From Escherichia phage PHB11: a stretch of 64,000 bases of DNA. Made by a program: the position numbers and the translations under genes. Under the pieces are notes generated by a model. The model was not told where the DNA came from. It was given only the letters and a program-made list of their open reading frames with translations, and did no database searches. The DNA lies in the sequence record MK524176.1, one strand, 5' to 3'. Of the stretch, positions 20,116 to 61,359 are shown one piece after another. Every line of letters starts with the position of its first letter. Within the stretch, counting starts at the first letter, position 1.

Positions 20116-20390
20116 GGCTACTGCCATCCTTCCATACATTACCTTACCTTACCTCACCTGACCTGACCTGACCCTACCTAACATTACCGTGCCACACCTC
20201 ACTTAAAAACCCTCTTAAAAGACTCTTAAGTGATGTAAGTCTCATTTTAATGTAGCTGAGACTAACTACCCATACCTGACCGAACATTACTAGGCCTTAC
20301 CAGACACTACAGAACAGGACAGCACCGCACCTTATTAAAAGACCCTGTTTAAAGACCTTTTAAAAAGGAGCCTCCGAAGAGGCTACCTAG
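20116..20390. repeat. Non-coding pentamer-periodic element E1 (copy 1 of 2)
   Basis: Starts GGCTACTGCCATCC; runs of NNACC pentamers (TTACC TTACC TTACC TCACC TGACC TGACC TGACC ...); conserved blocks C, B, A shared with 21519-21793; ends in GAGCCTC-CGAA-GAGGCTC hairpin. Confidence 0.7.
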
Positions 20391-20395
20391 TCAAC

Positions 20396-20836
20396 TTAGA
20401 AAGGTTTTCTACGTTGCTTGTTAATGTTAGCTTTCATAGCAGCTAAGTGGTTTTGCTGTTCAATCAGTCGTGAGCGTTCTTGATGGCTAAGTTCCATAGT
20501 GTTCACATTCTCAATAGCTTGAGTGGCTTGCTTTAAAGCTCGACCAATCTTACCAGACATTTTACGTTTTGCAATAGTTGCTTGATGTTTAGGTTCAACC
20601 ACACGATAACCAACACCCATTGAAGCAACCAGATAAATCTTCTCTTCTTTAAGAAGCTTCTCAATAAACTTCTCAAGTCGGTTTAGACGTGTAAGTGCAT
20701 AAGCCTTCATTTCATCTTCGTACTTAACAATGTCGCCTTGATAAGTTGGCTTCACAATACCTAAGAAGGTGTCCATCTCAGAATGTGATACAGTGTCACC
20801 GTAACTAAACTTTGCTGCTAATGCTTTTGTATTCAT
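20396..20836 (-). CDS. Hypothetical protein (cassette gene 2)
   Basis: 146 aa ORF, basic C-terminus; flanked by the E1/E2 repeat elements. Confidence 0.4.
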   Translation of the reverse strand: MNTKALAAKFSYGDTVSHSEMDTFLGIVKPTYQGDIVKYEDEMKAYALTRLNRLEKFIEKLLKEEKIYLVASMGVGYRVVEPKHQATIAKRKMSGKIGRALKQATQAIENVNTMELSHQERSRLIEQQNHLAAMKANINKQRRKPF

Positions 20837-20838
20837 AA

Positions 20839-21444
<606 letters not shown>

Positions 21445-21518
21445 TTAGTTGATTGTTAAGTTGTTTGTAAAGAACCCTCAACAGAAGACTCTTTAGAAAC
21501 TTGGTAGATTTTTAACGT

Positions 21519-21793
21519 GGCTACTACCATCCACCCATACCGTGCCACACCACACCGGACTATACCATGCCCAACCCTACTACACCAGACCTTATTAAAA
21601 GACCCTCTTAAAAGACCTTTTAAAAAGGTAAGTCTCATTTTAATGTAGTTGAGACTAACTACCCATACCTTACCGCACCGGACATTACCGGACCGCACAT
21701 CACCGCACCAAACCAAACATCACATTACCTGACCTCACCGCGCCTTACCATACCTCACTTAAAAACCCCTCTTAAAGATTCTTAAGTGATGCT
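21519..21793. repeat. Non-coding pentamer-periodic element E2 (copy 2 of 2)
   Basis: Starts GGCTACTACCATCC; NNACC pentamer runs (TTACC GCACC GGACA TTACC GGACC GCACA TCACC GCACC AAACC ...); same blocks as E1 but order A-B-...-C. Confidence 0.7.
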
Positions 21794-32730: not shown

Positions 32731-33771
32731 ATGGAGAAGTATACGCTAACAAAACTTCCCGATTCAGTTACACATGTCTTTATTGACTCTGACAGTATTG
32801 CCTATAAAGGTGCTTGTGTAGTTGAGAAAGCAAAATATAAATATGTCAATAAACTCACAGCAGAAGAATCTGAACCATTTGATAATGCAAAAGATGCCGC
32901 AAGATGGTTAGCAGACCAGAGAATCCTTGTAGAAGAGCTTGGCCTAGCATTTGATGAAGATGAATGGGAAAGACAGACTTGGAAAGAAGCTAAGAGTGAA
33001 AAAGAAGCTATCATGGCTACTCAGCAGGTTCTTCAGGAATGGCTTAAGGTTGTTGGTAAAGAAAGAACTTGGGTAGGTTACTTAACAGAGAAAGGTGTGC
33101 ATAAGCATAAAGACGTTAAAGGTCTTGAGCACCAATATCAAGGTAACCGTAAAGATGCTGTCACACCAACACACTTAGTTGCTTGTCGTGAATATCTCCT
33201 GTCAAGACCAGAGTTCAAACTCTTAAAGGGTGGCTTCGAAGCCGACTCAATCGTTATTGCTAAAGCTGAAAAGATGGGTAAGAAAGCTGCTCTTATGAGT
33301 ATTGACAAAGACCTTCGACAAGCTGAAGGTACTTATTGTATTGATATGACTTATGAAAAGTCACCACTAATTTTTATTGCTGATAATAATGTTGGTGATA
33401 TCTGGGATTGCCCTATCAAATCAAAACCAAAAGCTGCAAAAACAGTTGGTGTAGGTTTTAAATTCTTGTGTTATCAGGCTGTTGCTGGAGATAATGCAGA
33501 CAACTACTTCGGACTTAAAGGTGCTGGAAAAGTAGCTGTGATGAATGCTTTAGATGGTAAAGAGACTTATAAAGAGTGTCTTGATGCTATCTATGAACTC
33601 TATGCTAAAAAAGAGTCTTATACCTATGTATCATGGGATGGACAGACTGTTACCAAAACACCATTAGAGTTAATGGAACAGCATTTCTGGATAGCATATC
33701 AAGAGAGAAATCCAAAAGATAATTTCTCTTTTAAGAAATATAATTGGGAGCCGTGTATGAATGAAGATTAA
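32731..33771 (+). CDS. 5'-3' exonuclease (T7 gp6-like)
   Basis: Blocks VFIDSDSIAYKGA, MSIDKDLRQ and GDNADNYFGLKGAGKV matching the T7 gene 6 exonuclease pattern. Confidence 0.6.
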   Translation: MEKYTLTKLPDSVTHVFIDSDSIAYKGACVVEKAKYKYVNKLTAEESEPFDNAKDAARWLADQRILVEELGLAFDEDEWERQTWKEAKSEKEAIMATQQVLQEWLKVVGKERTWVGYLTEKGVHKHKDVKGLEHQYQGNRKDAVTPTHLVACREYLLSRPEFKLLKGGFEADSIVIAKAEKMGKKAALMSIDKDLRQAEGTYCIDMTYEKSPLIFIADNNVGDIWDCPIKSKPKAAKTVGVGFKFLCYQAVAGDNADNYFGLKGAGKVAVMNALDGKETYKECLDAIYELYAKKESYTYVSWDGQTVTKTPLELMEQHFWIAYQERNPKDNFSFKKYNWEPCMNED

Positions 33772-34258
33772 AGGATTTGGCAATTGCCCTACCTATGGTC
33801 ATTGGGTATCTTTATGTGGGGAAGTTGACCCCACTAAACATTTTGGTTTTGTCTATTTAGTACACTGTAAGAAGACCGGACAATATTATATCGGAAAGAA
33901 ACAGCTTAATAGTGTGACCAAAAGAAAAGTTGCTGGCAAGACTCGGAAGAAGGTAGTCACTAAGGAGAGTGATTGGGTGACTTATGAGACTTCTTCTGAG
34001 TATATTAAAAAAGATATTGAGAGCTTTGGAAAAGAATTTTTTGACTTTTACATTATCCAAACCTACTACACGAAAGGTGGTCTAGTTTATGGTGAAGCAA
34101 ACCTCCAACATAAATTCGATGTAATGACAAAAAGGATTGACTCTAAGCTCAGACTCTTCTACAATGCCAATATTGCAGCAATTAAGTTTATCACTAAAGA
34201 AACTTATGAAGATGCTGAAAAAAGAATCCATAAGGTAATGAAAGCAAATTGTGCTTGA
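33761..34258 (+). CDS. GIY-YIG-like (T5orf172-type) domain protein, possible nuclease
   Basis: N-terminal FGFVYLVHCKKTGQYYIGKK resembles the GIY...YIG motif pair; remainder unassigned. Confidence 0.35.
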   Translation: MKIKGFGNCPTYGHWVSLCGEVDPTKHFGFVYLVHCKKTGQYYIGKKQLNSVTKRKVAGKTRKKVVTKESDWVTYETSSEYIKKDIESFGKEFFDFYIIQTYYTKGGLVYGEANLQHKFDVMTKRIDSKLRLFYNANIAAIKFITKETYEDAEKRIHKVMKANCA

Positions 34259-35896: not shown

Positions 35897-35902
35897 ACTA
35901 GT

Positions 35903-35925
35903 GAGCCTCTTCGGAGGCTCTTTTC
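35903..35925 (+). terminator. Intrinsic terminator upstream of nrdA
   Basis: GAGCCTC-TTCG-GAGGCTC hairpin followed by TTTT. Confidence 0.6.
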
Positions 35926-35942
35926 ATCTGTAGGATTCAAAA

Positions 35943-38177
35943 ATGATTAAGACAATTAAAAAATCAAACGGTACAGTAGTAAGCTTTGACCCAGAAAGAC
36001 TGAATAAGTGGGCATCATGGGCAGATAAGCGTGGAATTATCTGGTCAGAAGTCACTATGGAAGCCATGAAACGTGTCTATGAGGGTTGCACTACAAAAGA
36101 GATGCACCAAGCCATGATTGATGTTTGTGTTGATAAGCAAACTCAAGAGTACTCAGACATGGCTGGACGGCTACTTCTGGGAATTATCTACAAAGAAGCC
36201 TTTGGAGGCTTTACTAAGGTTCCTACGCTGGTTACCTTCGTTAAAAATATGGAGAGAGCAGGACTTTGGGAGAAGATGGACTATTCTCAGGAAGAGCTTG
36301 AATATCTGCAAGGGTACATTGTGCACTCAAAAGATATCTCTTATGGTTATGCAGTCCTGAAACAGTTCAGAGACAAGTATGGTATTCGTGATATCAAAAC
36401 GGGAAGACTTTTTGAGTCACCACAATTTATGTTTATGGGTATGGCTATGAAAGCCTTTGAGAAGCAACCAAAGCACCGTAGACTGCAAGATGTTATCAAG
36501 CTGTACACTTACCTATCTGACCTGAAGATTAATGCTCCTACACCTTATCTGAATGGTTTAAGAGCTACTAAATCGGGTTATGCGTCATGCTGTTTGATTA
36601 AGGCGAATGATACCGCTGAATCACTCGGTATTGCTGCAAAGGTTGCTTATGATATGACTACAAAGCAAGCTGGTATCGGGATGCTGATGGAGACTCGTAC
36701 TATTGGTGATGGTATCCGTCAAAATACTATTGAGCACATGGGTAAACTACCTTATTACAAGCTTGTACGTTCATCTGTAGAGGCAAACAAACAGAAGAGT
36801 CGTGGTGGTTCAGCTAACAACTTCTACACTGCTCTAGACCCACAGATTGAAGATTTACTGCGTTTGAAGCACCCTACAACGGTTCCTTCGAAACGTATTA
36901 ACGAGATGGACTACTCATTCGGCACAAATGATTATTTCTGGCAGTGTGTTCAATATGATACAGACTGGTTGCTTTTCTCTTACAAGGATGCACCAAAGCT
37001 CTATGACATGTTCTACACAGCATCTGCTGATGAGTTTGCTATGGCAGTTGGTCACGCAGTACATTCAGGTGTTAAGCACAGACGGGTGAAGGCTCGTGAA
37101 ATTGCTAAACTGTTTATCCAGCAGCGTTATGCAACAGGCCGTGTGTACCCATTCTTCACGAATAATGCAAACACACATACACCATTTAAAGAGCCTTTGA
37201 AGATGTCAAACCTTTGTATGGAAATTGTGTTGCCAGTGTACGGCTTTGAGAAAGAGACAGACCTTTACAGAGATGATGCTGTGAAAGAGGATGGTGAGGT
37301 AGCTCTTTGCTTCCTAGCTAGTTTGGTTGCAGGGAGAATTTCGGAAGATGAATACGCTGACGTTGCTTATTATGCTCTTGCAATGGTTGACTCCGTTATT
37401 GACCTTATGGATTATCCGTATCCGTCGATGCGCAACCATGTTCAGAAGCGTCGTTCTGTTGGTATTGGCCTTACAAATGTGGCTCATTACCTTGCAAAAA
37501 ATTACGTGAACTACTCTTCAAGAGCAGGTAAGACAAAGCTTCATGAGCTTGCTGAAATGCACTCTTACTACTTACACGAAGCTTCTTTAAGACTTGCTAA
37601 AGAACGTGGTGTACCTGAGTATATGCAGTTCACTAAGTATCCTGAAGGTTGGGTTCCTCCGAAGACAGCTAACAGGAAGATTGATGAGAAGCATGATGCA
37701 AAACTTCGTTATGATTGGGATGACTTAGCACAACGTATTAAAGAAAATGGTGGAATCCGTAACTCTGTATTAGAAGCTTACATGCCTAATGAGAGTTCTT
37801 CACTGGCAACTAATACGACAAATGGCTTGTATCCAATTCGTGACTTTATTTTAACTAAAAAGTCTGCAACTGGTAACGTACTGTTTATTGTTCCAGATTA
37901 CGAAGAGTTGAAGTATGTCTATGAAATTGCTTGGGATATTGACACCTTTGACCTGATTGATTGTTATGCAATTGTTCAAAAGTTCACTGGTCAAGCTATT
38001 TCTTCAGATTTCTATGTTGACTACGCAAAAGCTAAGAAGGTATCATTGGCTCAAGCTTTGAAGTACATGATTTATGCCAACTCAGTAGGTATGAAAACCA
38101 TGTACTACCTTAACAGTCGCATCGGTGTAGGTAAATCTGCACTACAAGATGCTTATTGCGAGGGTTGTGGTGTTTAG
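35943..38177 (+). CDS. nrdA: Ribonucleotide reductase class I large subunit
   Basis: N-terminal ATP-cone, active-site SNLCMEIVLP, tyrosine pair ...TMYYLN..., C-terminal cysteine pair CEGCGV. Confidence 0.85.
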   Translation: MIKTIKKSNGTVVSFDPERLNKWASWADKRGIIWSEVTMEAMKRVYEGCTTKEMHQAMIDVCVDKQTQEYSDMAGRLLLGIIYKEAFGGFTKVPTLVTFVKNMERAGLWEKMDYSQEELEYLQGYIVHSKDISYGYAVLKQFRDKYGIRDIKTGRLFESPQFMFMGMAMKAFEKQPKHRRLQDVIKLYTYLSDLKINAPTPYLNGLRATKSGYASCCLIKANDTAESLGIAAKVAYDMTTKQAGIGMLMETRTIGDGIRQNTIEHMGKLPYYKLVRSSVEANKQKSRGGSANNFYTALDPQIEDLLRLKHPTTVPSKRINEMDYSFGTNDYFWQCVQYDTDWLLFSYKDAPKLYDMFYTASADEFAMAVGHAVHSGVKHRRVKAREIAKLFIQQRYATGRVYPFFTNNANTHTPFKEPLKMSNLCMEIVLPVYGFEKETDLYRDDAVKEDGEVALCFLASLVAGRISEDEYADVAYYALAMVDSVIDLMDYPYPSMRNHVQKRRSVGIGLTNVAHYLAKNYVNYSSRAGKTKLHELAEMHSYYLHEASLRLAKERGVPEYMQFTKYPEGWVPPKTANRKIDEKHDAKLRYDWDDLAQRIKENGGIRNSVLEAYMPNESSSLATNTTNGLYPIRDFILTKKSATGNVLFIVPDYEELKYVYEIAWDIDTFDLIDCYAIVQKFTGQAISSDFYVDYAKAKKVSLAQALKYMIYANSVGMKTMYYLNSRIGVGKSALQDAYCEGCGV

Positions 38178-38232
38178 TTTTAATAACTATGAGGGTCGTA
38201 AAAGACCCTCTAAAATTAACTTTGGAGAAACT

Positions 38233-38490
38233 ATGAAAGACCTAATAGAAAAACATGAGAGACCAATATACTTGTTCTACAAACCCCGCAAAACATTATA
38301 CTACGTGAGCAGCACAGGCATCATGATAAAGCAGAATGATGACTTATGGGTAACTGGAGCCTCTTACATCTCTACAGCAGATGGTAAAATCTACGCAAGA
38401 CCTTACGAGATGTTCAATGAAGAAAATTGGGAAGTTTTAGACAGAAAACAAGCCTTAGAGATGATAAAGAAAGGAGAAATCACACTATGA
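38233..38490 (+). CDS. Hypothetical protein between nrdA and nrdB
   Basis: ATG at 38233 preceded by GGAGAA; the ORF track start at 38149 overlaps nrdA. Confidence 0.35.
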   Translation: MKDLIEKHERPIYLFYKPRKTLYYVSSTGIMIKQNDDLWVTGASYISTADGKIYARPYEMFNEENWEVLDRKQALEMIKKGEITL

Positions 38491-39560
38491 TTAACCAACA
38501 CCCAATCTTTTTAGGTGGTGAAAGAAAAACATTTGACTCCCTTAATAAACACTACCCAAAAATCTTTGAGCTATACAAACAACAAAAAGCGCAAGACTGG
38601 TCAGAAGATGAGTTCCCTTTTGAACAATCACGTCTTGATTTTGAGAGTGTGCCAGCATCAATGTCAGGTGTAATGCTTGAGATTCTTAAGTGGCAGTGGG
38701 AAGCAGATACCCAAGTTGCTAAGAGTTTAGCGTTTGCCTTTGCACCATTTATCTCTGATGACATTTATGCAACTGCAATTATGAAGCAGTCTGAGATTGA
38801 AAACCTACATGCTCTCACTTACTCGGAGATTGTAAGGCAATGTATTAAAAACCCTGAAACAATCTTAGATGAGATTAACCAGAATATTGCTGTGCAAGAC
38901 CGATTAAAAACTGTGAATCGTGTTCTTGAAGAATTGCTGGACGAAGGTATAAACTATCGGCTGAGTTATGTCCGTGACTCACTTCTGGACAAAGACCCTT
39001 TACACTTCCATAAAGTGATTTTAAAAGGTCTATTTGCAGTGACTGCACTTGAAGGTATATCTTTTATGGCATCCTTTGCGTGTACTTTTGCACTTGATGC
39101 TCAAGATAAATTTCAAGGTATTGCTCAAGCTGTCCAGAAGATTATGCTTGATGAAATCCTTCACACTAAAATTGATATTGAAGTTTTAAAAGAAACTTTA
39201 AGAGATGATGAGTGGCAAAAAGCTTTCCAACAAATTCTTCCAGAGATTAAAGTAATCTTAGATGAAGTAGTTGAAAGTGAAGAGAAATGGTCGTATTATA
39301 TCTTCTCCGAAGGACGTGCTGTAGTTGGGTTAAATACAAAGCTTCTTCATGAGTGGGTTTACTATAATGCTGCCCCACTGTATGATATGTTTGGCATTCC
39401 CAGAGATTTTGTAGCTCCTAAAGAACCACCTTTGAAGTATATGATTAAGAAGATGGAAATTGATAAAGAGCAGAATGCTAATCAGGAGCAACAGAACGGT
39501 GCGTATTTATTGAATACTGTTGTAGATGATTTGAATAGTGGATTTTTAGAGGTTCCTTAA
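38487..39560 (+). CDS. nrdB: Ribonucleotide reductase class I small subunit
   Basis: Di-iron/tyrosyl radical blocks SEIENLHALTYSE and DEILHT; start set at MINQHP (38487, AAAGGAGAAA upstream). Confidence 0.8.
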   Translation: MINQHPIFLGGERKTFDSLNKHYPKIFELYKQQKAQDWSEDEFPFEQSRLDFESVPASMSGVMLEILKWQWEADTQVAKSLAFAFAPFISDDIYATAIMKQSEIENLHALTYSEIVRQCIKNPETILDEINQNIAVQDRLKTVNRVLEELLDEGINYRLSYVRDSLLDKDPLHFHKVILKGLFAVTALEGISFMASFACTFALDAQDKFQGIAQAVQKIMLDEILHTKIDIEVLKETLRDDEWQKAFQQILPEIKVILDEVVESEEKWSYYIFSEGRAVVGLNTKLLHEWVYYNAAPLYDMFGIPRDFVAPKEPPLKYMIKKMEIDKEQNANQEQQNGAYLLNTVVDDLNSGFLEVP

Positions 39561-39802
39561 TGACTTATGTAATTTACTCCAAAACTGGATGCCCTCAGTG
39601 TGAGACTGCAAAGAATTTTGCAAAAGCTCGTGGTATTGACCATGTTGTAAGAATGTTGGGGCAGGATTATGAACTGTCAGACCTGATTGATATTGCACAG
39701 ATGCCAGTTCGTCAGATGCCATTCATCATGAAAACTGATGGTCAAAATCTAAAACCTGTTGGAACGCTACAGAATTTCATGGCAGAGGTGAATAATGCTT
39801 AA
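39560..39802 (+). CDS. Glutaredoxin/thioredoxin-like redoxin (RNR reductant candidate)
   Basis: CPQC active-site motif in an 80 aa protein directly after nrdB. Confidence 0.6.
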   Translation: MTYVIYSKTGCPQCETAKNFAKARGIDHVVRMLGQDYELSDLIDIAQMPVRQMPFIMKTDGQNLKPVGTLQNFMAEVNNA

Positions 39803-40001
39803 ACGCCTTTGGGAAGGCTTGGTTGTTGATGCACCAGCCATTGTGATTGGTATGCTTGTTGTTAACCTATTTACTGATTTTGAACAAGGTTCATTGTTTG
39901 GAGCCATGTTACTATGGGTTATCTTTGAAATATTAGAGATACAGCTAGGCATTACTGAAAAACTAAGAAAACTTGTTTCGAAGTTTTCTAAAAAGATTTA
40001 A
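39795..40001 (+). CDS. Small membrane protein
   Basis: Two hydrophobic segments (AIVIGMLVVNLF, AMLLWVIFEIL). Confidence 0.35.
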   Translation: MLKRLWEGLVVDAPAIVIGMLVVNLFTDFEQGSLFGAMLLWVIFEILEIQLGITEKLRKLVSKFSKKI

Positions 40002-40008
40002 AATGAAA

Positions 40009-40031
40009 AGGTCTCTTCGGAGACCTTTTTA
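40009..40031 (+). terminator. Intrinsic terminator upstream of nrdD
   Basis: AGGTCTC-TTCG-GAGACCT hairpin followed by TTTTT. Confidence 0.6.
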
Positions 40032-40049
40032 GCATGTAAAGGGGCAATA

Positions 40050-42194
40050 ATGAACAAAGTACAGATTATTAAAAAGAACGGCTCACTTGAAGAACCTGAT
40101 ATCAAAAAAGTTTTAGCAGCAGTAACTAAGTCAGCTAACAGAGTTGGGTATAAAGAACTCCCACCAGATGTTACCCAAGCTCTTGAGTCAGCATTTATGA
40201 GGATTCTGGTAAAGTCCACTAAGCAGAATAATTTGCTCATCTCGGTAAACGATATTCACAGTATTGTTGAAGGTGCTTTGGCAGAAGTCAATCACGAGAT
40301 TTATGAGTCTTACTCAACATACAGAAATTACCGTAAAGAGGTTGCTCAAAATTGGGATGAGCTTTACCAAAAGACTAAAGACACACTCTTCTTAGGTGAC
40401 CGTGAAAACGCTAACTTTGACAGTAGTTTAATTTCTACAAAAGGCTCAATTATTCGTGGTTACCTGACTAAAGAAATCTTTAAACAGTACCATTTAACAC
40501 CAGAGGAACTTGAAGCCATTGAAAAAGGGTTTATCTACATCCATGACTTAAGAGACCTAATTTTTGGTGGGATTAACTGTTGCCTGTTTGACATTGGTAG
40601 AGTACTGAAAGGTGGCTTTGAAATGTCTGGCATCGAATACTGTGAACCGAAGTCTGTACTGTCAGCCTTACAGGTTATCGGTGATGTAGTTCTTTCAGCA
40701 ACTGCACAGCAATTTGGTGGCTTTACTTTAGCAGAGATTGACAAGGTGCTTGTACCGTATGCTAAGAAGTCTCTACGCTATCATGCTGAGAAAGCAGCAT
40801 CTTACGGTATTCCTAAAGAACATTACCATAATTATGTCATGGAGCAGCTACAGATTGAATTAACTCAAGGTTTCCAGTCACTAGAGATGAAGCTAAATAC
40901 TGTACCTTGTAGCCGTGGTGATTTCGCATTCACAACTTTAACATTTGGTTTACTTGACTCAGACATGTCTAATGAAGACAACCGACTACAATACATGATT
41001 GCAAACACCATTCTTGATGTTCGCATGAATGGACAAGGTAAGAGCAAGAAGCCTGTTGTATTCCCTAAACTGGTTTATATTCATGACCAGAAGAGACACG
41101 ATGAGAATATCTGTCAAGGTCAACTGTACAGTAAAGCTATTGAGTGTTGCTCTAAAGCTATGTATCCAGATTTCTTAAGTGTATCTGGTCATGGTGCTGC
41201 AGCAGAGGCTTTTGAGCGTTCTGGCAAGGTAATTTCACCGATGGGTTGCAGAGCTTTCTTATCCCCATATTTTAACGAGAATGGAGAAGAGTTCTACGTT
41301 GGACGTGCTAACATTGGTGCTGTATCTTTGAACTTGCCAATGATTTACCAGTATTCTAAAGAGAATGGTTTAGATTTCTGGAAAGAGCTTGATAAGTACC
41401 TAGAGATGATTCGCAGCTTCCACAAGAAACGCTACGAAATGATTGCTAATATGCCAGCAAGCTCTAACCCTCTTGCATTCACACAAGGTGGTCTGTACAA
41501 AGGGACTAAGAAACCTACTGACAAGGTTGGTTGGGATATCGTGAAGTCTTTCACAGCTTCTTTTGGGGTTACTGCACTTGATGAGTTATCTGTTCTTGCT
41601 GAGGGTAAACGACTTCATGAAGTTGGAAGCTGTAGTTTTGCATACGATGTTCTGGCATACATTAACATGAAAACTGAAGAGTTTAAGAACGAAGATGGCT
41701 TCTTGTATGCGGTATATGGCACTCCAGCAGAGTCATTGTGTGGAACTCAGCTAAAACAGTTCAGAGATATGTTTGGCGTTATCAAAGGTGTTTCTGATAA
41801 GGAATATTTTACAAACAGTTTCCATATGAATGTTGCAGCAGATATCTCACCATTTGAGAAGCAGGACTTAGAAGAACCATTCTTCCATATCTGTAGAGGT
41901 GGTAGAATCCAGTATGTAAGGGTAGCTAACCCAGAAAACTTACCAGCACTTAAAAGTTGTATTACAAGAGGGATGTTGAAAGGTTTTTATCAGGGACTTA
42001 ACTTTGACTTAGCAATCTGTGAACATTGTGGTAACAGACCAAAGGCTGATGTTGAAGAATGTGAGGTTTGCCATTCACATGACATCTCTGTGATTAACAG
42101 GGTGTGTGGGTATCTTGGGTGGACTAAGATTAAAGGCGAATCCCGAATGAACGATGCAAAAATTGCTGAGATTCGTGATAGAGTCTCTATGTAA
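40050..42194 (+). CDS. nrdD: Anaerobic ribonucleotide reductase (class III)
   Basis: N-terminal ATP-cone, C-terminal zinc ribbon CEHCGN...CEVCH and glycyl-radical motif RVCGYLGW. Confidence 0.85.
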   Translation: MNKVQIIKKNGSLEEPDIKKVLAAVTKSANRVGYKELPPDVTQALESAFMRILVKSTKQNNLLISVNDIHSIVEGALAEVNHEIYESYSTYRNYRKEVAQNWDELYQKTKDTLFLGDRENANFDSSLISTKGSIIRGYLTKEIFKQYHLTPEELEAIEKGFIYIHDLRDLIFGGINCCLFDIGRVLKGGFEMSGIEYCEPKSVLSALQVIGDVVLSATAQQFGGFTLAEIDKVLVPYAKKSLRYHAEKAASYGIPKEHYHNYVMEQLQIELTQGFQSLEMKLNTVPCSRGDFAFTTLTFGLLDSDMSNEDNRLQYMIANTILDVRMNGQGKSKKPVVFPKLVYIHDQKRHDENICQGQLYSKAIECCSKAMYPDFLSVSGHGAAAEAFERSGKVISPMGCRAFLSPYFNENGEEFYVGRANIGAVSLNLPMIYQYSKENGLDFWKELDKYLEMIRSFHKKRYEMIANMPASSNPLAFTQGGLYKGTKKPTDKVGWDIVKSFTASFGVTALDELSVLAEGKRLHEVGSCSFAYDVLAYINMKTEEFKNEDGFLYAVYGTPAESLCGTQLKQFRDMFGVIKGVSDKEYFTNSFHMNVAADISPFEKQDLEEPFFHICRGGRIQYVRVANPENLPALKSCITRGMLKGFYQGLNFDLAICEHCGNRPKADVEECEVCHSHDISVINRVCGYLGWTKIKGESRMNDAKIAEIRDRVSM

Positions 42195-42349
42195 AACTTG
42201 ACAAGGTGGTGTGGGTCTTGATAGGCTTACATCACCTTTTTTTATTGGATGTTAGATATGGCAGAGAGTATTATTGGGTTGTTCATAGGTTCTGTCTTAC
42301 TAGGGTTCTTTTTAGGACTTTCTTATTGTGAATTGAGAGATAAGTTAAA

Positions 42350-42550
42350 ATGTTTAAAATATCAAAAACGTTGATATACATACTCCACATTCTAATCTTC
42401 TTCTTTGGGGTTAGTGTTATGGTATGGGGTTTTTCAGACCCACAATGGAGTTTATCATATCATGGACAAATGGATTTATGGTCATGCTTCAAACCATTTT
42501 TAGGGTTAGTTATAGCATTCAGTGCATTACCAACTAGGGTGAAATTATGA
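42350..42550 (+). CDS. Small membrane protein
   Basis: 66 aa with two hydrophobic segments. Confidence 0.3.
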   Translation: MFKISKTLIYILHILIFFFGVSVMVWGFSDPQWSLSYHGQMDLWSCFKPFLGLVIAFSALPTRVKL

Positions 42551-42942
42551 TTAAGTTGAACCAAAAACAGTTAGAGTGGATTAAAGACTACGCCTCAGAG
42601 TGTGGCTCTTGCGAAAAGAATCACGTAAAATACTCAACATTCCATACAATCTTCACATTGTACATCAGCGACAATGTTCTAAGTGATTCCGTGGAAGACG
42701 GTGTAGCGTTACCTAATGAGTTACTTGATAAACTAGCTGTAGTCACTGGAACTTGGTCTGAAGAAGACGGTCATGAATTATCTGATGATGTTGTCTTCTA
42801 CACTCTTGAAAACATCATGAATCCAGAGTACATTATGCTAATGACTTGTGCACAAGACTGTGTGCCATTACAAAACTTCATTAAAGAACACTGTGAAGAG
42901 TTTATTACTAAACAGGTTCCTTGTCAGGTAGTGTTTGAATAA
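42547..42942 (+). CDS. Hypothetical Cys-rich protein
   Basis: 131 aa ORF between nrdD and nrdG. Confidence 0.35.
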   Translation: MIKLNQKQLEWIKDYASECGSCEKNHVKYSTFHTIFTLYISDNVLSDSVEDGVALPNELLDKLAVVTGTWSEEDGHELSDDVVFYTLENIMNPEYIMLMTCAQDCVPLQNFIKEHCEEFITKQVPCQVVFE

Positions 42943-42977
42943 GTAAAACAATTAAATAATATTGGTGAGGTAACTAG

Positions 42978-43463
42978 ATGAATTACATGGAGATTCGACC
43001 ATTTGACACAGCTAATGGTGAAGGGGTTCGTGTAAGCCTCTTCGTAGCTGGCTGTAAACATCACTGTGAAGGCTGCTTTAACAGGGAGTCTTGGAAGTTT
43101 AATGCTGGTAAAGAGTTTACTTATGCAAACCTCTACGGCATCATCAAGTTAATGGATGATAATGCTATCAGTGGGCTGTCAATACTGGGTGGGGAGCCTC
43201 TGGATGACAGAAACATTCAAGAGGTCACCAACATATGCAAGCGTATTAAAACTGTTTATCCAGAAAAGTCTATATGGCTTTGGACAGGTTTTCAACTACA
43301 CGAAAAAATCCACTTAGATGTGATGAAATATGTTGACGTGGTAATTGATGGTAAGTATGATTCTTCTAAACCAACAGTTAAACCATACCGTGGCTCTGAT
43401 AACCAAAACCTCTGGAGAAAAGAATATGGGTGGCAAGGCGATTGTCAATGGCGAGCAGAATGA
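42978..43463 (+). CDS. nrdG: Anaerobic RNR activating enzyme (radical SAM)
   Basis: CxxxCxxC cluster CKHHCEGC near the N-terminus; position after nrdD. Confidence 0.75.
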   Translation: MNYMEIRPFDTANGEGVRVSLFVAGCKHHCEGCFNRESWKFNAGKEFTYANLYGIIKLMDDNAISGLSILGGEPLDDRNIQEVTNICKRIKTVYPEKSIWLWTGFQLHEKIHLDVMKYVDVVIDGKYDSSKPTVKPYRGSDNQNLWRKEYGWQGDCQWRAE

Positions 43464-43701
43464 TTATTCTGGCAAGTGGACTTATGACATCAACAAGTTA
43501 GATGCCTGGATTATTTATACAAGAGAAAAATTTGGTGCACATTCATTATGTGCTCTTGCAACGATTGTAAAGAATGTAACCTTTGTCATACACGAGTCAG
43601 ATAAATTTGGAGACTTCTACAGGATTCAAAACATGAGAGAGGGTATCACTCCAATAGGAATCACTGAAGAAGAACTTCATAAGTTCTGCATTAAACTTTA
43701 A
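43426..43701 (+). CDS. Hypothetical protein
   Basis: Internal Met with GGAGAA upstream; ORF track start at 43345 overlaps nrdG. Confidence 0.3.
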   Translation: MGGKAIVNGEQNDYSGKWTYDINKLDAWIIYTREKFGAHSLCALATIVKNVTFVIHESDKFGDFYRIQNMREGITPIGITEEELHKFCIKL

Positions 43702-43716
43702 TGAGAGAGACTAAAA

Positions 43717-43983
43717 ATGGGAATTTTAGGTAATATGAAGGCTGGCTTCTTGAAGGCACTGGCAAAAGCAGCAGCAATCATTTCTATGACTGGAAAGCAG
43801 GTTGGTGTAGATGCTTCAGCAGTTGCACAAGTTCTTGCAAGCCAAATTGAACAGCAGCCTTACATCCACGTAGGACGTGGGAAAGGTGGTAAAAAACAAT
43901 CACATCGACCAACTGGTGCAGCAGCAATTAAACGTGCAGCTAAAAAAGCTCGTAACCGTAAACGTAACAAGAAGGCTAAATAA
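43717..43983 (+). CDS. Small basic protein (possible nucleic-acid-binding)
   Basis: Lys/Arg-rich C-terminus ...RAAKKARNRKRNKKAK. Confidence 0.35.
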   Translation: MGILGNMKAGFLKALAKAAAIISMTGKQVGVDASAVAQVLASQIEQQPYIHVGRGKGGKKQSHRPTGAAAIKRAAKKARNRKRNKKAK

Positions 43984-47919: not shown

Positions 47920-48255
47920 ATGAAAATCAAAGAAATGAATATCAATATTGTCTTAGAAGAACGTTGGGAGAACATCAAGAAGCCTGAAAATGGTCATAAG
48001 TTCCTCAACAAAATCTTAGTAGCAGCTAAAGAAGAACTGACTGGCAAGGTTGCAGCAGCAATCACAATAAAGGTCTGTGTAAAAGGTCTTCCAGACAATC
48101 ACCAATTTGCACTTGACGAGTTTAAAGAAAGCTTCTACAATCCAAACAAACAGATGCTTGAAAGTAACTTTGCAGTATCTACAAGTATCGTCCATGACAG
48201 AAGCTTTATCCTTTACAAGAATATGAGAGGTGAGTCATGCAAGCATATTGGATAG
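47920..48255 (+). CDS. Hypothetical protein
   Basis: 111 aa ORF. Confidence 0.35.
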   Translation: MKIKEMNINIVLEERWENIKKPENGHKFLNKILVAAKEELTGKVAAAITIKVCVKGLPDNHQFALDEFKESFYNPNKQMLESNFAVSTSIVHDRSFILYKNMRGESCKHIG

Positions 48256-48414
48256 AAATTTTACTGTCACTTGGTAGTGTAGCAGTGTTTGTTTACCTTC
48301 TTTGCAAGTACTATGCAGAGCACAAAAAATGTGACTTCTGTAATGGAGAAGGTTATACAAGAGCAGGTTGTTGCCCTATGTGTGGTGGTTCTGGTAAAAT
48401 GTTTAATAAGTAAT
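48238..48414 (+). CDS. Small membrane zinc-ribbon protein (not in ORF track, 58 aa)
   Basis: MQAYWIEILLSLGSVAVFVYLLCKYYAEHKKCDFCNGEGYTRAGCCPMCGGSGKMFNK: hydrophobic helix plus CxxC...CxxC. Confidence 0.3.
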
Positions 48415-56647: not shown

Positions 56648-56854
56648 ATGCTTTACAGTCGTGAATTGATGGTTACAACTAACGTTAACACAAAGGTAAA
56701 ACGTTTTTATATGCAAGTGTGCGGCGCATGGCGTAGAATATCAGAAGCTGACTATTGCAACTATGTAGAAACGGCTATTAATTCTAATTGCTACCTTACA
56801 ATAAACACTAAGAAGTTTACAAGACAGACAGCAATTTACTACTACGATAAATAA
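56648..56854 (+). CDS. Small early-region protein, unknown
   Basis: 68 aa; TIR CCTAAACTGGAGAATCAAAAAATG. Confidence 0.4.
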   Translation: MLYSRELMVTTNVNTKVKRFYMQVCGAWRRISEADYCNYVETAINSNCYLTINTKKFTRQTAIYYYDK

Positions 56855-56945
56855 AAAAGTACTTTACAGGGGGCTTAAAAGCTGATATCTTAAGCCCCAG
56901 ATAAAGAGCTTTACTAAACTAACCCTTAAACTAGGAGATTCAAAA
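56855..56945 (+). promoter_or_regulatory. Early cassette, class A
   Basis: AAGTACTTTACA, hairpin GGGGCTTAA-N11-TTAAGCCCC (TTTACA-17-TATCTT overlaps it), AGATAAAGAGCTTTAC, TIR ...CTAGGAGATTCAAAAATG. Confidence 0.45.
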
Positions 56946-57326
56946 ATGGCTTATCGTGCACCTAAATTCATCAACAAAGACAACTTTCGCAACGCACTGG
57001 AGAAGTCACTTGATGAAAATTTTAAAGGTAATATTATCGTTGTTCACGCATTCAATTTTAAGTATGATGTAAACGGGAATAGAATCAACCATTACACAGC
57101 AACCATGTTAGATGGTACGCTATCAAGTGAAAAAGCTGTACTGAATGCACTTGCAGGACGTGGTAAAAACCTGATAAGATGCGATAAGAGACGTTATCAG
57201 GGTGGCGCATATGGTTATGATGATGCTGTTTATCATCTTGAAAATATGGGCTATTCAGTGGAAAAAGCTGGAGTGTCTCAAATAATCGGCAGTGACGGCT
57301 ATGTGACAATTTTCAAAATTAACTAA
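56946..57326 (+). CDS. Small early-region protein, unknown
   Basis: 126 aa ORF preceded by a class A cassette. Confidence 0.45.
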   Translation: MAYRAPKFINKDNFRNALEKSLDENFKGNIIVVHAFNFKYDVNGNRINHYTATMLDGTLSSEKAVLNALAGRGKNLIRCDKRRYQGGAYGYDDAVYHLENMGYSVEKAGVSQIIGSDGYVTIFKIN

Positions 57327-57414
57327 TAAAGTACTTTACAGGGGGCTTATAGTTCGATAAAGTAAGCCCCAGATAAAGAGCTTTACCACTAAATCCTAAA
57401 TTGGAGATTCAAAA
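57327..57414 (+). promoter_or_regulatory. Early cassette, class A
   Basis: TAAAGTACTTTA palindrome overlapping the upstream stop, GGGGCTTA...TAAGCCCC hairpin, conserved TIR. Confidence 0.45.
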
Positions 57415-57705
57415 ATGGCTATTATTAAAAACGTTGTAATTCCTGCAAAAACTCGTGATGACGCTCGCATCATGGCGAAAAAGTTAGGCGGGAAAGTGGT
57501 TGACAACGGAAAACAAACTGCTGTAAGGTGGAACGTGAAGGCGGATAAACAAATGAATTTAAAAAATTCACCAATAAACCTTTTTACATGTGTAAACACT
57601 ATCGGGAAAACGAATGTATACACTAAAAAGGCATATATCAGACGCATCGCCATGACGTCACCTATTCGCACAATGAGAAGTCATGCAAAGCTGAAAATTA
57701 AGTAA
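57415..57705 (+). CDS. Small early-region protein, unknown (basic)
   Basis: 96 aa ORF preceded by a class A cassette. Confidence 0.45.
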   Translation: MAIIKNVVIPAKTRDDARIMAKKLGGKVVDNGKQTAVRWNVKADKQMNLKNSPINLFTCVNTIGKTNVYTKKAYIRRIAMTSPIRTMRSHAKLKIK

Positions 57706-57795
57706 TAGAGTACTTTACAGGGGGCTTAAAAGCTGATATCTTAAGCCCCAGATAAAGAGCTTTACCACTCAATCCTTAAACTAGGAGATTCAAAA
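57706..57795 (+). promoter_or_regulatory. Early cassette, class A
   Basis: GAGTACTTTACA, GGGGCTTAA...TTAAGCCCC hairpin, conserved TIR. Confidence 0.45.
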
Positions 57796-58308
57796 ATGAA
57801 AACTGTAGACGCTACCTTTGAAGTTGTAAAAGAAAAATTTTCCATCATTTACGAAGCTGTCAATTGCTACGAAGCAAGCCATAATCTTGATAATTGGAAG
57901 TTTACAGATGACCATCAAGGCGGTGTGACTATTAAAAACCCCAACTGTCAGCGTAATGGATTTAAATATGCAATTCCTTTACATTACAGCCTTAAACAGC
58001 TTTCAATTGACTATGCAAAACAAGGCCGGGAAAATCCATCGAAAGAGGCTTACATCAGCTTACAGAAAGAACTAGAAAGAGATTTAGAGGCTTCAGAATA
58101 TAACATCGCCGCGAAAGTTGTAGATGCAAACGGTAGCACGGTTTTAGAGAGTTTTTATATTGGTTATGCTTTCGATTGGTGCTACAGTGACGGCGATGAT
58201 TTAGATGACAGACTAAAAGAGGAAGTGAACAACGCAGACGCAGAATCTGAAGTATTAGAACGCTTGGAAGCATTAAAAGATTCAGTGATGAATATCTTTA
58301 AGAACTAA
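57796..58308 (+). CDS. Small early-region protein, unknown (acidic C-terminus)
   Basis: 170 aa ORF preceded by a class A cassette. Confidence 0.45.
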   Translation: MKTVDATFEVVKEKFSIIYEAVNCYEASHNLDNWKFTDDHQGGVTIKNPNCQRNGFKYAIPLHYSLKQLSIDYAKQGRENPSKEAYISLQKELERDLEASEYNIAAKVVDANGSTVLESFYIGYAFDWCYSDGDDLDDRLKEEVNNADAESEVLERLEALKDSVMNIFKN

Positions 58309-58399
58309 ATAGATTTCTTTACACGGGGCTAACAAGCGGATATGATAGCCCCAGATAAAGAGATTTATCAAATTAACCCTTAAACTAGGAGATTCAAAA
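58309..58399 (+). promoter_or_regulatory. Early cassette, class A variant
   Basis: TTTACA, 17 bp spacer, TATGAT with compensating hairpin GGGGCTA...TAGCCCC; conserved TIR. Confidence 0.45.
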
Positions 58400-58696
58400 A
58401 TGAAATTATCAAATAAAGTTAGGGAAAACCTTAGCAAATTACTCAACAAAATTGATTTTATAGAGACATCAAGGAATAGTCATGATGTTATGGAATGGTT
58501 ACACGGCAAAATAAAAGGCCGTCGTGTAGTGATTTGCTTATGGAATAGTTGCAGGGAGTATAAAAAGCCTGTATTGCAAATTAATGTTTATGATGATACT
58601 TTTAAAAGTCCTGTAAAGTCTAAAAGCGATTTATTAGAATCCTATGAGATAACTGTAAATGGCAAAGTATCACGTAAAGAGGAAACACCATGTTAA
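58400..58696 (+). CDS. Small early-region protein, unknown
   Basis: 98 aa ORF preceded by a class A cassette. Confidence 0.45.
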   Translation: MKLSNKVRENLSKLLNKIDFIETSRNSHDVMEWLHGKIKGRRVVICLWNSCREYKKPVLQINVYDDTFKSPVKSKSDLLESYEITVNGKVSRKEETPC

Positions 58697-59022
58697 TGAC
58701 TGGTATCACTGCAATCATTGCCATTTTCGCGCTATATAAGGCATATAAAGCCTATAATCTAGCAAATAAGGCAATCACACAGCAAGTTAGCAATAACCTT
58801 GTAGAGAGCTTTCTAGGGCGTTTAAGTGATGAGCAAATAAAGCGGCTAGAGATGAGCTTCAGATATAAAGCGAAAACCTATCAGATAAGTGACATCTTCA
58901 AAGATGATTTCCAGTTAGTTGATGATTATAATTCTCTGATAAATGCTTTAAACATCAGTGACTTGAAAGACTATCACGCTGTAATTGTTCAAGAATTGAG
59001 CAAACGAAAACAAAGTGTTTGA
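58690..59022 (+). CDS. Small early-region protein, unknown
   Basis: 110 aa ORF overlapping the upstream stop; N-terminal hydrophobic helix. Confidence 0.4.
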   Translation: MLMTGITAIIAIFALYKAYKAYNLANKAITQQVSNNLVESFLGRLSDEQIKRLEMSFRYKAKTYQISDIFKDDFQLVDDYNSLINALNISDLKDYHAVIVQELSKRKQSV

Positions 59023-59113
59023 CACTGATTTTTAGATAGGTTAAATTACACATCAACGGGGAGGGGATGACCTTCCCCACTAAATAAAGTCCTTAAACTA
59101 GGAGATTCTAAAA
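59019..59113 (+). promoter_or_regulatory. Early cassette, class B (promoter, 5' UTR hairpin, TIR)
   Basis: TTGACA, 17 bp spacer, TAAATT, ATCAACGGGGAGGGGATGACCTTCCCC hairpin, ACTAAATAAAGTCCTTAAACTAGGAGATTCTAAAAATG. Confidence 0.5.
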
Positions 59114-59272
59114 ATGTTTTGTGCAGGTGATAAAGTTGTCTGGAATGATATAGATGACGGTTTATGTACGAAAGTTGTTGTTATCTTAGAAATTGATTAT
59201 ATCACTGGTGTTGCAACTGTAGCAGATAATGATATAATCTTTGATGTCTTAATTAGTGAACTGTCAAAATAA
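59114..59272 (+). CDS. Small early-region protein (not in ORF track, 52 aa)
   Basis: ATG right after a class B cassette; translation MFCAGDKVVWNDIDDGLCTKVVVILEIDYITGVATVADNDIIFDVLISELSK. Confidence 0.4.
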   Translation: MFCAGDKVVWNDIDDGLCTKVVVILEIDYITGVATVADNDIIFDVLISELSK

Positions 59273-59297
59273 AGTCCTTAAACTAGGAGATTCAAAA
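59273..59297 (+). promoter_or_regulatory. TIR-only module (no own promoter), operonic with 59114..59272
   Basis: AAAGTCCTTAAACTAGGAGATTCAAAAATG immediately after the upstream stop. Confidence 0.45.
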
Positions 59298-59570
59298 ATG
59301 TACACTACTAACAACGGTCGCACCTTAAATGCAACCCTACGCCACTATGTGAACGGTGTAATGCACTTCGAGGATTTACAAGCTGAACAGCACATTTTGG
59401 ATTGGCAACTTGCAGGATTCCAAAAAACTGCTACCGGATACGGGAAAAAGATTCCAACTAGCTGGAAAGTATACTACGAAGGCCGTTTGCGTAGAATTTA
59501 TCAAGATGTATGCGGCAATAGCGCATCAAGTTACATCATAGTAAAAGGCAAAAAGCTGCATTTAGCATAA
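59298..59570 (+). CDS. Small early-region protein, unknown
   Basis: Start set at MYTTNNG (59298); the track start 59256 reads through the conserved TIR. Confidence 0.45.
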   Translation: MYTTNNGRTLNATLRHYVNGVMHFEDLQAEQHILDWQLAGFQKTATGYGKKIPTSWKVYYEGRLRRIYQDVCGNSASSYIIVKGKKLHLA

Positions 59571-59655
59571 AGTACTTTACAAGGGGCTTATAAGTCTGTA
59601 CAGTAAGCCCCAGATAAAGAGCTTTACCACTAAATCCTAAATTGGAGATTCAAAA
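59571..59655 (+). promoter_or_regulatory. Early cassette, class A
   Basis: TAAAGTACTTTA palindrome, GGGGCTTA...TAAGCCCC hairpin, conserved TIR. Confidence 0.45.
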
Positions 59656-60060
59656 ATGGCTATTAATAATCGTGAGTTATCTATCTTAAAAGCACGTTTG
59701 ACCGTTAACCGGATTAATGTTATCACATCAGCAGCACCGGATGAAACACTGCAAAACATTATTGGGAAGATTCAAAGTGTTATCTTAGACGTTGAAAGCG
59801 TAAAAAACTCATTGGCTGACGTTGCAGCCGGTATCACGCTAGACGGTGCACAACATGAGATGGCCGACATGTTAGGCAAATCAAAGGTAATGAATAAAGA
59901 ATTAGACTTGAAAATGTTTCGATTTGCTGTTAAAGTGTGGCTATCCGTCGAGTATGACGCTAATTTTGCAATCGCTGATTTCTTTGCCACTTGGTTACAA
60001 CGTAACTTAACAAATCATGATTTCCGTGATGTCTGTGATGCAATCTACGCAGAACTTTAA
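59656..60060 (+). CDS. Small early-region protein, unknown
   Basis: 134 aa ORF preceded by a class A cassette. Confidence 0.45.
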   Translation: MAINNRELSILKARLTVNRINVITSAAPDETLQNIIGKIQSVILDVESVKNSLADVAAGITLDGAQHEMADMLGKSKVMNKELDLKMFRFAVKVWLSVEYDANFAIADFFATWLQRNLTNHDFRDVCDAIYAEL

Positions 60061-60160
60061 AAAGATGTTGACACTGATTTTTAGATAGATTAAATTACTC
60101 ATCAACGGGGAGGCAATAACCTCCCTACTAAATAAAGTCCTTAAACTAGGAGATTCTAAA
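60061..60160 (+). promoter_or_regulatory. Early cassette, class B
   Basis: TTGACA (60068-60073), 17 bp spacer, TAAATT, ATCAACGGGGAGG...CCTCCC hairpin, conserved TIR. Confidence 0.5.
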
Positions 60161-60358
60161 ATGGCTATTATTAACGGCTTAACCATTGAAACAACACACA
60201 TCAAAGATATCAAAGTTGGTGATGTAGTCCTTTCCCACGGCGTAGAAAAAACTGTCACTGCAAAGGATATCAAAGAGGATTCTTTCATGGGTAGAACTCT
60301 CTTCGGTGATTCTTATTGCTTAGGTTATCTTGCAGTTTTAAAAGTTGTCAAAAATTAA
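60161..60358 (+). CDS. Small early-region protein, unknown
   Basis: 65 aa ORF preceded by a class B cassette. Confidence 0.4.
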   Translation: MAIINGLTIETTHIKDIKVGDVVLSHGVEKTVTAKDIKEDSFMGRTLFGDSYCLGYLAVLKVVKN

Positions 60359-61327: not shown

Positions 61328-61359
61328 AAACCTATGCAATCACATTATAAACACTATTC

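Follow-up and report, generated by a model that had tools for sequence, protein, structure and literature searches.

The window analysed here is a stretch of 64,000 nucleotides from Escherichia phage PHB11 (sequence record MK524176.1), given as one strand, 5' to 3'. Between positions 35943 and 43463 it carries genes for an aerobic and an anaerobic ribonucleotide reductase (RNR), among which small genes are interleaved, and the identity of this block and the role of its small genes are the subject of this study. The initial annotation had listed four small open reading frames (ORFs) in the block, starting at 38233, 39795, 42350 and 42547, and these are where it placed them, but it overlooked a fifth conserved small gene at 42249-42374. 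In the list below, ratios of nonsynonymous to synonymous divergence (dN/dS) are pooled Nei-Gojobori values from comparison of the window with other Felixounavirus loci, seven or eight in number; as phylogeny is shared between the pairs, the figures are indicative rather than exact. Felix O1 gene numbers were deduced from the positions of t111, t116, P117 and t124, and agree with the published list of Felix O1 transmembrane (TM) proteins (Whichard et al. 2010; PMC3185647).

35943 to 38177, + strand: nrdA, class Ia RNR large subunit, 744 amino acids (Pfam; E = 3e-126 to E. coli R1; dN/dS 0.011)
38233 to 38490, + strand: 85-amino-acid soluble beta-rich protein, phrog_2652 (GGAG Shine-Dalgarno sequence; 4-nt overlap with the nrdB start)
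38487 to 39560, + strand: nrdB, class Ia RNR small subunit, 357 amino acids (Pfam E = 4e-34; dN/dS 0.010)
39560 to 39802, + strand: grx, glutaredoxin/NrdH-like redoxin, 80 amino acids (PF00462, 29.9 bits, cutoff 22.9; phrog_22)
39795 to 40001, + strand: 68-amino-acid two-TM hairpin protein with basic C-tail, phrog_4532, Felix O1 gp116 (GAGGTG Shine-Dalgarno sequence)
40050 to 42194, + strand: nrdD, class III anaerobic RNR, 714 amino acids, intron-less (PF13597, NRDD, E = 1e-113)
42249 to 42374, + strand: 41-amino-acid single-TM micro-protein with basic C-tail, phrog_20082, Felix O1 gp118
42350 to 42550, + strand: 66-amino-acid membrane protein, phrog_11929, Felix O1 gp119
42547 to 42942, + strand: 131-amino-acid soluble alpha/beta protein, phrog_4382, Felix O1 gp120
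42978 to 43463, + strand: nrdG, radical S-adenosylmethionine (radical-SAM) activase of NrdD, 161 amino acids (PF13353, Fer4_12, E = 2e-43, 148 bits; dN/dS 0.031)

Identity of the block

A megablast search with window positions 35900-43500 against 50,697 phage records matched 261 of them. In 251 records the match spans 80% or more of the query, with identities of 80-99%, and the 7.6 kb of the block are 96-99% identical to 251 full-length phage records, chiefly Felixounavirus. The matching records are nearly all Felixounavirus phages of Escherichia, Salmonella, Shigella or Citrobacter, with phage ZX4221 as the closest (98.8% identical across the block). The gene order nrdA-x-nrdB-grx-x-nrdD-(x)-x-nrdG is kept in the annotation tables of relatives, Felix O1 included, and also in Moogle, Suspvirus and two metagenomic lineages. 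The flanking genes are likewise those of Felix O1, with a MazG-like pyrophosphatase upstream and phosphoribosyl pyrophosphate synthetase, nicotinamide phosphoribosyltransferase and rIIA downstream. Judged by its sequence, the window belongs to Felixounavirus (Ounavirinae, Felix O1-like myoviruses), and the block can be identified with the already known and described Felix O1-type module for aerobic and anaerobic supply of deoxynucleoside triphosphates (dNTPs). The cluster has been in GenBank, small ORFs included, since Felix O1 was sequenced, it recurs in hundreds of genomes, and as a discovery it is minor.

Reductase genes

That nrdA, nrdB, a CPQC redoxin, nrdD and nrdG are all present with intact catalytic motifs, as the initial annotation had it, is borne out by both Pfam searches and structure alignments. 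NrdA contains PF02867 (Ribonuc_red_lgC; E = 5e-91) and PF00317 (E = 3e-14) with a weak ATP-cone (20.5 bits, cutoff 25.8), and its alignment to E. coli R1 recovers C216, N423/C425/E427, C456, Y721-Y722 and the C-terminal C739xxC742. The aligned NrdB has the iron ligands D74, E105xxH108, E189 and E223xxH226, the radical tyrosine Y112 and the C-terminal Y340. In the redoxin the active site C11PQC14 is intact and lies N-terminally in a thioredoxin-fold domain; the NCBIfam subfamily models (GrxA, Grx3, NrdH) all score well under their cutoffs, the best with 25.6 against 99.3 bits. NrdD, aligned to PDB 9d3x and to T4 NrdD, has C177-C178, C400, the zinc site C657xxC660...C671xxC674 and the glycyl-radical residue G687 in RVCGYLG, and NrdG has the intact cluster motif C26xxxC30xxC33 (CKHHCEGC). 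All five genes show dN/dS of 0.01-0.04. NrdA and NrdB, with their own CPQC glutaredoxin-like reductant, would supply dNTPs with oxygen, and NrdD with its radical-SAM activase NrdG would do so without it; as both reductase classes are present, the phage should be able to replicate in both oxygen states of its enteric host.

The nrdD gene of the window is a contiguous ORF of 714 codons, and no Rfam match to a group I intron was obtained in the window. Such an intron (RF00028, 55.4 bits) occurs in nrdD of some Felixounavirus (L011 5479-5853 in REP11; also loci L009, L012 and L021), with or without an HNH_3/NUMOD1 endonuclease ORF, and its insertion site is the codon of catalytic Cys400 (PMGCR), equivalent to window position ~41247.

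The five small genes

All five small genes fall in PHROG families, and their conservation, the purifying selection on them and the good ribosome-binding sites that three of them have identify them as real genes as far as sequence can tell. The annotated frames give dN/dS of 0.07 for ORF 38233 (other frames >1), 0.09 for ORFs 39795 and 42547 and 0.03 for ORF 42249 (other frames >3), with ORF 42350 (0.25-0.29) the least constrained of the five; alternative frames of each small ORF give about 0.7-3.7, well above the annotated frame throughout. Good Shine-Dalgarno sequences precede ORFs 38233, 39795 and 42547, and a weak one precedes ORF 42350. Adjacent genes overlap by 4 nt (38233/nrdB), 1 nt (nrdB/grx), 8 nt (grx/39795), 25 nt (42249/42350) and 4 nt (42350/42547). 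Orthologues with 33-69% amino-acid identity occupy the same slots in Mooglevirus, Suspvirus and the two metagenomic lineages, except for ORF 42350, which occurs in Felixounavirus only (187 records, none less than 80% identical) and is absent from Moogle and Susp phages. ORF 39795 was found in 257 records and adjoins grx in every one. The initial annotation had allowed that the small ORFs might turn out to be unconserved and had proposed looking for them in relatives; what we found is PHROG membership, cross-genus orthologues and frame-specific purifying selection, with all five inserts conserved, 42350 within Felixounavirus only. Domain searches, also proposed there, yielded nothing significant for the small ORFs in Pfam, NCBIfam or PADLOC.

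A TM micro-gene of 32-42 codons lies directly upstream of the 130-amino-acid gene in every Ounavirinae lineage examined. The orthologues of ORF 42249 are found in Moogle, SUSP1, EcSzw_1, L017 and L018, and are unannotated in the first three of these, so that recognition of this membrane micro-gene is a gain for annotation. The membrane assignments made in the initial annotation hold for ORF 39795, with two strong hydrophobic segments, and for ORF 42350, with one. Kyte-Doolittle peaks reach 2.1-2.4 in ORFs 39795, 42249 and 42350, and charged tails are present (KLRKLVSKFSKKI and KLKCLKYQKR), features that are weakly diagnostic of a holin. A strong TM segment is present in only 4 of the 36 small ORFs (100 amino acids or fewer) of the window, and three of the four lie in this block, a clustering above background; the test is post hoc, and two of the three block ORFs are adjacent. 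The fourth is a 58-amino-acid ORF at 48237-48413, just upstream of rIIA (the equivalent of Felix O1 gp131).

For ORF 42547, the Cys richness pointed out in the initial annotation is real in that the protein has six Cys, but these are not conserved in its family: across 25 family members none is invariant, C116 alone comes close, and many of the proteins have lost the CxxC of positions 19-22. We therefore reject a Cys-rich metal or redox protein, the family having no conserved set of three or more Cys/His ligands, and the Cys richness is best described as a feature of the lineage, not as a metal site. A profile search gave 27 clusters, and when 1.84 billion representative proteins were searched exhaustively with HMMER, the hits were confined to the family itself, one distant member of 134 amino acids (P0018) and a 1636-amino-acid protein (P0017). 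The match to P0017 was treated as spurious, as a 9-fold tandem repeat sums weak matches there. The AlphaFold2 model is confident (predicted local distance difference test, pLDDT, 92.8); Foldseek against the PDB returned nothing significant (best E = 0.25), and its BFVD neighbours are uncharacterised phage proteins only. With a confident and structurally unmatched fold, the 131-amino-acid family is a reasonable small target for work on phage proteins of unknown function.

A family-A DNA polymerase precedes the gene for P0018, which is itself about 1.4 kb upstream of grx-nrdA-nrdB, and nrdD and nrdG are absent within its 6-kb flanks. Used as a bridge in tblastn, P0018 led to T7-like podoviruses, and homology was then tested by hhalign profile comparison. 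A 127-amino-acid class II ORF of Przondovirus P509 is homologous to ORF 42547 (98.7%, E = 3e-16) and similar in size, and so is a 149-amino-acid class II ORF of Kayfunavirus YZ1 homologous to it (98.1%). Their place in each phage is between the genes for DNA polymerase and the H-NS-binding gp5.5-like proteins on one side and exonuclease gene 6 on the other, and both phages differ from the window in having no RNR. Homologues in HMD-P10, HMD-P8, JLBYU32 and Citrobacter phage HP1 are labelled 'tail tube protein', which looks like a propagated error, because the gene lies in the nrd block, is not in the Felix O1 virion proteome table, and has a model that matches no tail protein. The orthologue in Shigella phage Tf (L009 7201-7416) is interrupted by an in-frame stop, and its annotation is that of a 71-amino-acid fragment; this reflects either a gene that the isolate can do without or an error in sequencing.

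Homologues of ORF 38233 occur in several other settings. In Erwinia Kolesnikvirus, whose nrdA and nrdB directly adjoin, the distance from grx to the homologue downstream is about 2 kb; in Pectobacterium phage Arno162 the homologue lies upstream of nrdD, and in Vibrio phages of roughly 136 kb its neighbours are a homing endonuclease and DNA polymerase. The protein scores 14.1 bits against DUF1653 (PF07866), the Vibrio and Pectobacterium homologues 18.1 and 17.5, under the Pfam gathering threshold of 23.5. The window protein and its two distant homologues match the same part of the profile, and a beta-rich ...Y.R P..MF... pattern is common to them; the resemblance can be taken as a lead, not as membership. 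The family profile found no match in the PDB, and the AlphaFold2 model, from a shallow alignment, has pLDDT 57 and returned sequence homologues only in a fold search. A 113-amino-acid version of the ORF, starting at 38149 inside nrdA, is spurious; some gene callers produce it by translating through the hairpin at 38191-38210. We take the Met at 38233 as the true start because the homologues of Moogle and Suspvirus, like the PHROG profile, begin there. Synonymous sites of this ORF have diverged about twice as much as those of nrdA and nrdB on either side (pS 0.34 versus 0.15-0.18), and its identities within Felixounavirus are bimodal (95-99% versus 80-90%), a pattern that suggests allele exchange at the nrdA/nrdB junction. 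The same junction is the slot of mobE in T4 and of hegH in T5.

Hairpins and terminators

Hairpins fill four of the five longer intergenic gaps of the block, and in the fifth, the 35-nt gap between ORF 42547 and nrdG, the fold scan found none.

35903 to 35920, + strand: hairpin with UUCG loop, then T-run, upstream of nrdA, Felix O1 t111 (-13.2 kcal/mol; PMC3185647 Table 2)
38191 to 38210, + strand: 7-bp GC hairpin in the nrdA/ORF 38233 gap (-13.8 kcal/mol, z -2.7); no U-tract, role uncertain
40004 to 40031, + strand: 12-bp UUCG hairpin and T-run in the ORF 39795/nrdD gap, Felix O1 t116 (-16.2 kcal/mol, z -4.0; 0 of 200 shuffles fold as well; PMC3185647 Table 2)
42198 to 42245, + strand: TTGACA (at 42198, abutting the stem), 16-bp hairpin at 42203-42238 and T7 tract after nrdD, predicted intrinsic terminator (loop of 4, -22.9 kcal/mol, z -5.2; 0 of 200 shuffles as stable)

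Among 13 loci that represent five or more lineages, the hairpin after nrdD is near-invariant in sequence, while the flanking coding DNA diverges strongly, and it stays beside the downstream genes despite a homing endonuclease inserted after nrdD in SUSP1. Across the alignment 99.5% of base-pair cells are paired, four pairs alternate between G.U and A-U or G-C, and one pair has a double compensatory change (from G-C to A-U, in L018), a pairing pattern that fits an RNA structure on the + strand; variation is low, and 36 of 500 shuffles reach the covariation score. The T-tract varies from T5 to T7 among relatives, and the element with its TTGACA occurs once in the window rather than as a repeated cassette. 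We regard 42203-42245 as a conserved predicted Rho-independent terminator; our literature search found no transcript-end data for it, and no transcriptome or ribosome-profiling paper for Felixounavirus.

Recognition of this element also corrects gene calls. ORF 42206-42331, which figures in a program-made ORF list, is rejected as a gene, since its first 13 codons are both arms of the 16-bp hairpin, and it is this element, too, that is read as protein at the N-terminal end of Felix O1 ORF289; both ORF 42206 and the 5' extension of ORF289 can be reannotated as conserved predicted terminator. A frameshifted gene 42206/42249 is likewise rejected: runs of T5 to T7 occur among relatives, so that the T7 of the window is natural variation, and what would be the upstream 'coding' part is the hairpin. 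The hairpins before nrdA, after nrdA, after ORF 39795 and after nrdD would divide the block into sub-units, inside which overlapping stop and start codons would couple genes translationally.

Role of the small genes

We consider it likely, with a probability of roughly 80%, that the small genes are lineage-specific accessory or host-interaction genes and not reductase subunits or maturation factors. They would occupy junction slots that are repeatedly used by mobile elements in phage nrd clusters, with the 85-amino-acid protein placed upstream of nrdB, the 68-amino-acid two-TM gene joined to the end of grx, and the 41-amino-acid TM micro-protein, the 66-amino-acid membrane protein and the 131-amino-acid soluble protein placed downstream of the nrdD terminator. 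The 131-amino-acid family is carried by T7-like phages, too, among class II host-modulating and DNA-metabolism genes. The small genes do not appear to be RNR-specific because the Cys of ORF 42547 are unconserved, its family is found in phages without RNR, ORF 38233 homologues lie elsewhere, and the cargo of the slots varies. In the slot between nrdD and the 130-amino-acid gene, SUSP1, SUT_S720 and L017 have MobE/MobC-like or HNH endonucleases, EcSzw_1, L017 and L018 have a membrane protein of 87-117 amino acids, and Felixounavirus has ORF 42350.

Published screens on relatives bear on this question. In the CRISPRi-ART knock-down screen of SUSP1 (PMC11879866, supplementary file 16), nrdA is scored 'Fit' (1.69, p = 0.0085), and the phrog_2652, phrog_4532 and phrog_4382 orthologues (of ORFs 38233, 39795 and 42547) are 'Not Fit', as are nrdB, grx, nrdD and nrdG (PMC11879866). 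In the PhageMaP study of Bas63, a Felixounavirus, the segment with RNR and pyrophosphokinase genes (~46-66 kb) was reported as non-essential on four E. coli hosts, and by Bas63 coordinates grx to nrdG and all small genes except the first fall within it. These screens, aerobic and on laboratory strains, show dispensability and leave room for conditional roles.

For the small membrane proteins, a rough division of the probability gives somewhat more than half to modulation of the host or its envelope (exclusion or takeover), a minor share to roles of other kinds, a smaller one to lysis timing and the smallest to a link with RNR. A lysis function, with ORFs 39795, 42249 and/or 42350 as holin, antiholin or other lysis-timing protein, would be compatible with an accessory role and is unlikely. 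All three have one or two TM segments and a charged C-terminus, and Felix O1-type phages have no lysis cassette, gp79, gp116, gp118, gp119 and gp131 being holin candidates (PMC3185647). However, the SUSP1 orthologue of ORF 39795, agp065, is 'Not Fit' on knock-down (PMC11879866), the Moogle annotation has a putative holin but labels the ORF 39795 orthologue 'hypothetical', and ORF 42350 is missing from Moogle and Suspvirus. The genes also lie within a nucleotide-metabolism unit, whose neighbouring genes 112, 114, 115 and 120 peak at 25 min by reverse-transcription PCR (RT-PCR) of Felix O1, with 117 and 121 peaking at 60 min; gp116, gp118 and gp119 are not in that RT-PCR table (PMC3185647).

Several observations weigh against a purely accessory role, and they favour instead dedicated RNR accessory factors, such as a membrane tether, electron delivery to Grx or NrdG, or a switch between aerobic and anaerobic enzymes. 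Three of the small genes are stably syntenic with nrd genes in at least six Ounavirinae lineages, with translational coupling to nrdB, to grx and also, in Moogle and SUSP1, to nrdG; a functional link would likewise produce this. The TM micro-ORF of 32-42 codons and the 130-amino-acid gene are always upstream of nrdG, small TM ORFs are concentrated in the block (three of the four in the window), and non-homologous small TM proteins adjoin grx or RNR genes in an Erwinia phage, in L013 and in T4; the two-TM proteins of the Erwinia phage and L013 have no similarity to ORF 39795. In addition, the knock-down and knock-out screens were aerobic and on K-12-type hosts, and nrdB, nrdD and nrdG were also scored dispensable, so an anaerobic or host-specific RNR-linked role would be undetectable there. 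Against such factors stand the lack of conserved Cys/His clusters in the 131-amino-acid family, its homologues in T7-like phages without RNR, the ORF 38233 homologues unlinked from nrdA/nrdB, the knock-downs of SUSP1 small genes without effect where that of nrdA had one (PMC11879866), and the premature stop in phage Tf. It is the post hoc concentration of small TM ORFs, with the TM proteins after grx or nrdB elsewhere, that as sole support keeps a functional link alive, and we judge dedicated RNR factors to be improbable. A more specific version, in which the trio of TM micro-protein, 130-amino-acid protein and NrdG and the grx-joined two-TM protein form a membrane-associated layer of the phage dNTP factory, is more doubtful still; if true, this layer would for instance anchor the RNRs or regulate the aerobic-to-anaerobic hand-over, and would be invisible to aerobic laboratory screens.

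It is very improbable that the small ORFs are gene-calling artefacts or decaying intergenic remnants, which does hold for ORF 42206, the N-terminal extension of Felix O1 ORF289 (terminator hairpin) and the 38149 start, and to which ORF 42350 comes nearest with the weakest constraint and a weak Shine-Dalgarno sequence, as against frame-specific purifying selection in all five genes, the amino-acid identity kept across genera, the PHROG families and the confident fold of ORF 42547. Accessory or host-interaction genes of the lineage are therefore the reading we prefer for the small genes of this block.

Other features of the window

Just downstream of nrdG, at 43426-43983, lie genes of phrog_5082 and phrog_4425 (with a Lys/Arg-rich tail), whose alleles differ sharply among Felixounavirus (32-50% amino-acid identity to Felix O1), which points to a possible second replacement hotspot. 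Upstream of the block, at 33761-34258, is a 165-amino-acid SegE-like GIY-YIG homing endonuclease (PF19835, E = 1.4e-27); the same ORF is annotated 'NAD synthetase' in PP886228, a label that looks wrong. The region 20141-21791 holds four copies of a 95-nt unit with runs of ACCTN pentamers ending in 'TTAAAAGACCCTCTTAAAAGACC', and the TAAAAGACCCTCT core of this unit recurs at 38199-38223, in the nrdA/ORF 38233 hairpin, and at 52383. At 56840-62900, about ten copies of an intergenic cassette of ~100 nt precede successive small + strand ORFs. Every copy combines a -35-like hexamer, TTTACA, with a hairpin rich in GC (GGGGGCTTAA...TTAAGCCCC) and with a ribosome-binding site and start, 'CCTTAAACTAGGAGATTCAAAAATG', that are nearly identical from copy to copy. 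In this the cassette is similar to the promoter-stem-loop cassettes found in hyperplastic early regions of the T4 type.

Comparison with phages Felix O1, T4 and T5

The nrdABDG cluster of Felix O1 and its 80-amino-acid glutaredoxin were noted by Whichard et al. 2010 (PMC3185647), where gp116, gp118 and gp119 were also marked out as small TM proteins. Felix O1 genes 112-121 correspond to the block in order (nrdA, gp113, nrdB, glutaredoxin, gp116, nrdD, gp118, gp119, gp120, nrdG), with 87-96% nucleotide identity gene by gene, and terminators t111 and t116 are identical in both. The window differs from Felix O1 and the copies of its module in more than 250 Felixounavirus genomes at the allele level only; for instance, the T-tract of the nrdD terminator is T7 in the window in place of T5-T6. 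The window and Felix O1 have an intron-less nrdD, unlike Bas63, Tf, SUT_S720 and REP11, and the window lacks an additional ORF that Bas63 has between the 131-amino-acid gene and nrdG.

The initial annotation had called the embedded small ORFs unusual for an RNR operon. For phages this is mistaken, as T4 and T5 show the same pattern and the exact arrangement was published for Felix O1 in 2010. In T4 the layout is td-nrdA.2-nrdA.1-nrdA-mobE-nrdB.1-nrdB (with I-TevIII) and nrdD (with I-TevII)-mobC-nrdG-55.8 (a predicted membrane protein)-nrdH. T4 thus resembles the window in having aerobic and anaerobic RNR sets, a phage redoxin, interleaved small hypothetical ORFs and a small membrane protein, and a 4-nt overlap of one small ORF with the nrdB start is common to both. 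In T4, homing elements target nrdD and the nrdA/nrdB and nrdD/nrdG junctions, whereas no homing endonuclease lies inside the block of the window, and the two RNR sets are ~95 kb apart in T4 but contiguous in the window. No similarity was found between T4 nrdB.1 and ORF 38233, or between T4 55.8 and ORF 39795, so the resemblance is architectural rather than ancestral. T5 likewise has a gene inserted at the nrdA/nrdB junction (nrdA-hegH-nrdB) and small unknown ORFs after nrdD; its insert is an HNH endonuclease, in contrast to that of the window, and we saw no T5 homologue of the small ORFs of the window. Interleaved small ORFs, a membrane protein by the redoxin and mobile elements at the junctions are the norm in large virulent coliphages.

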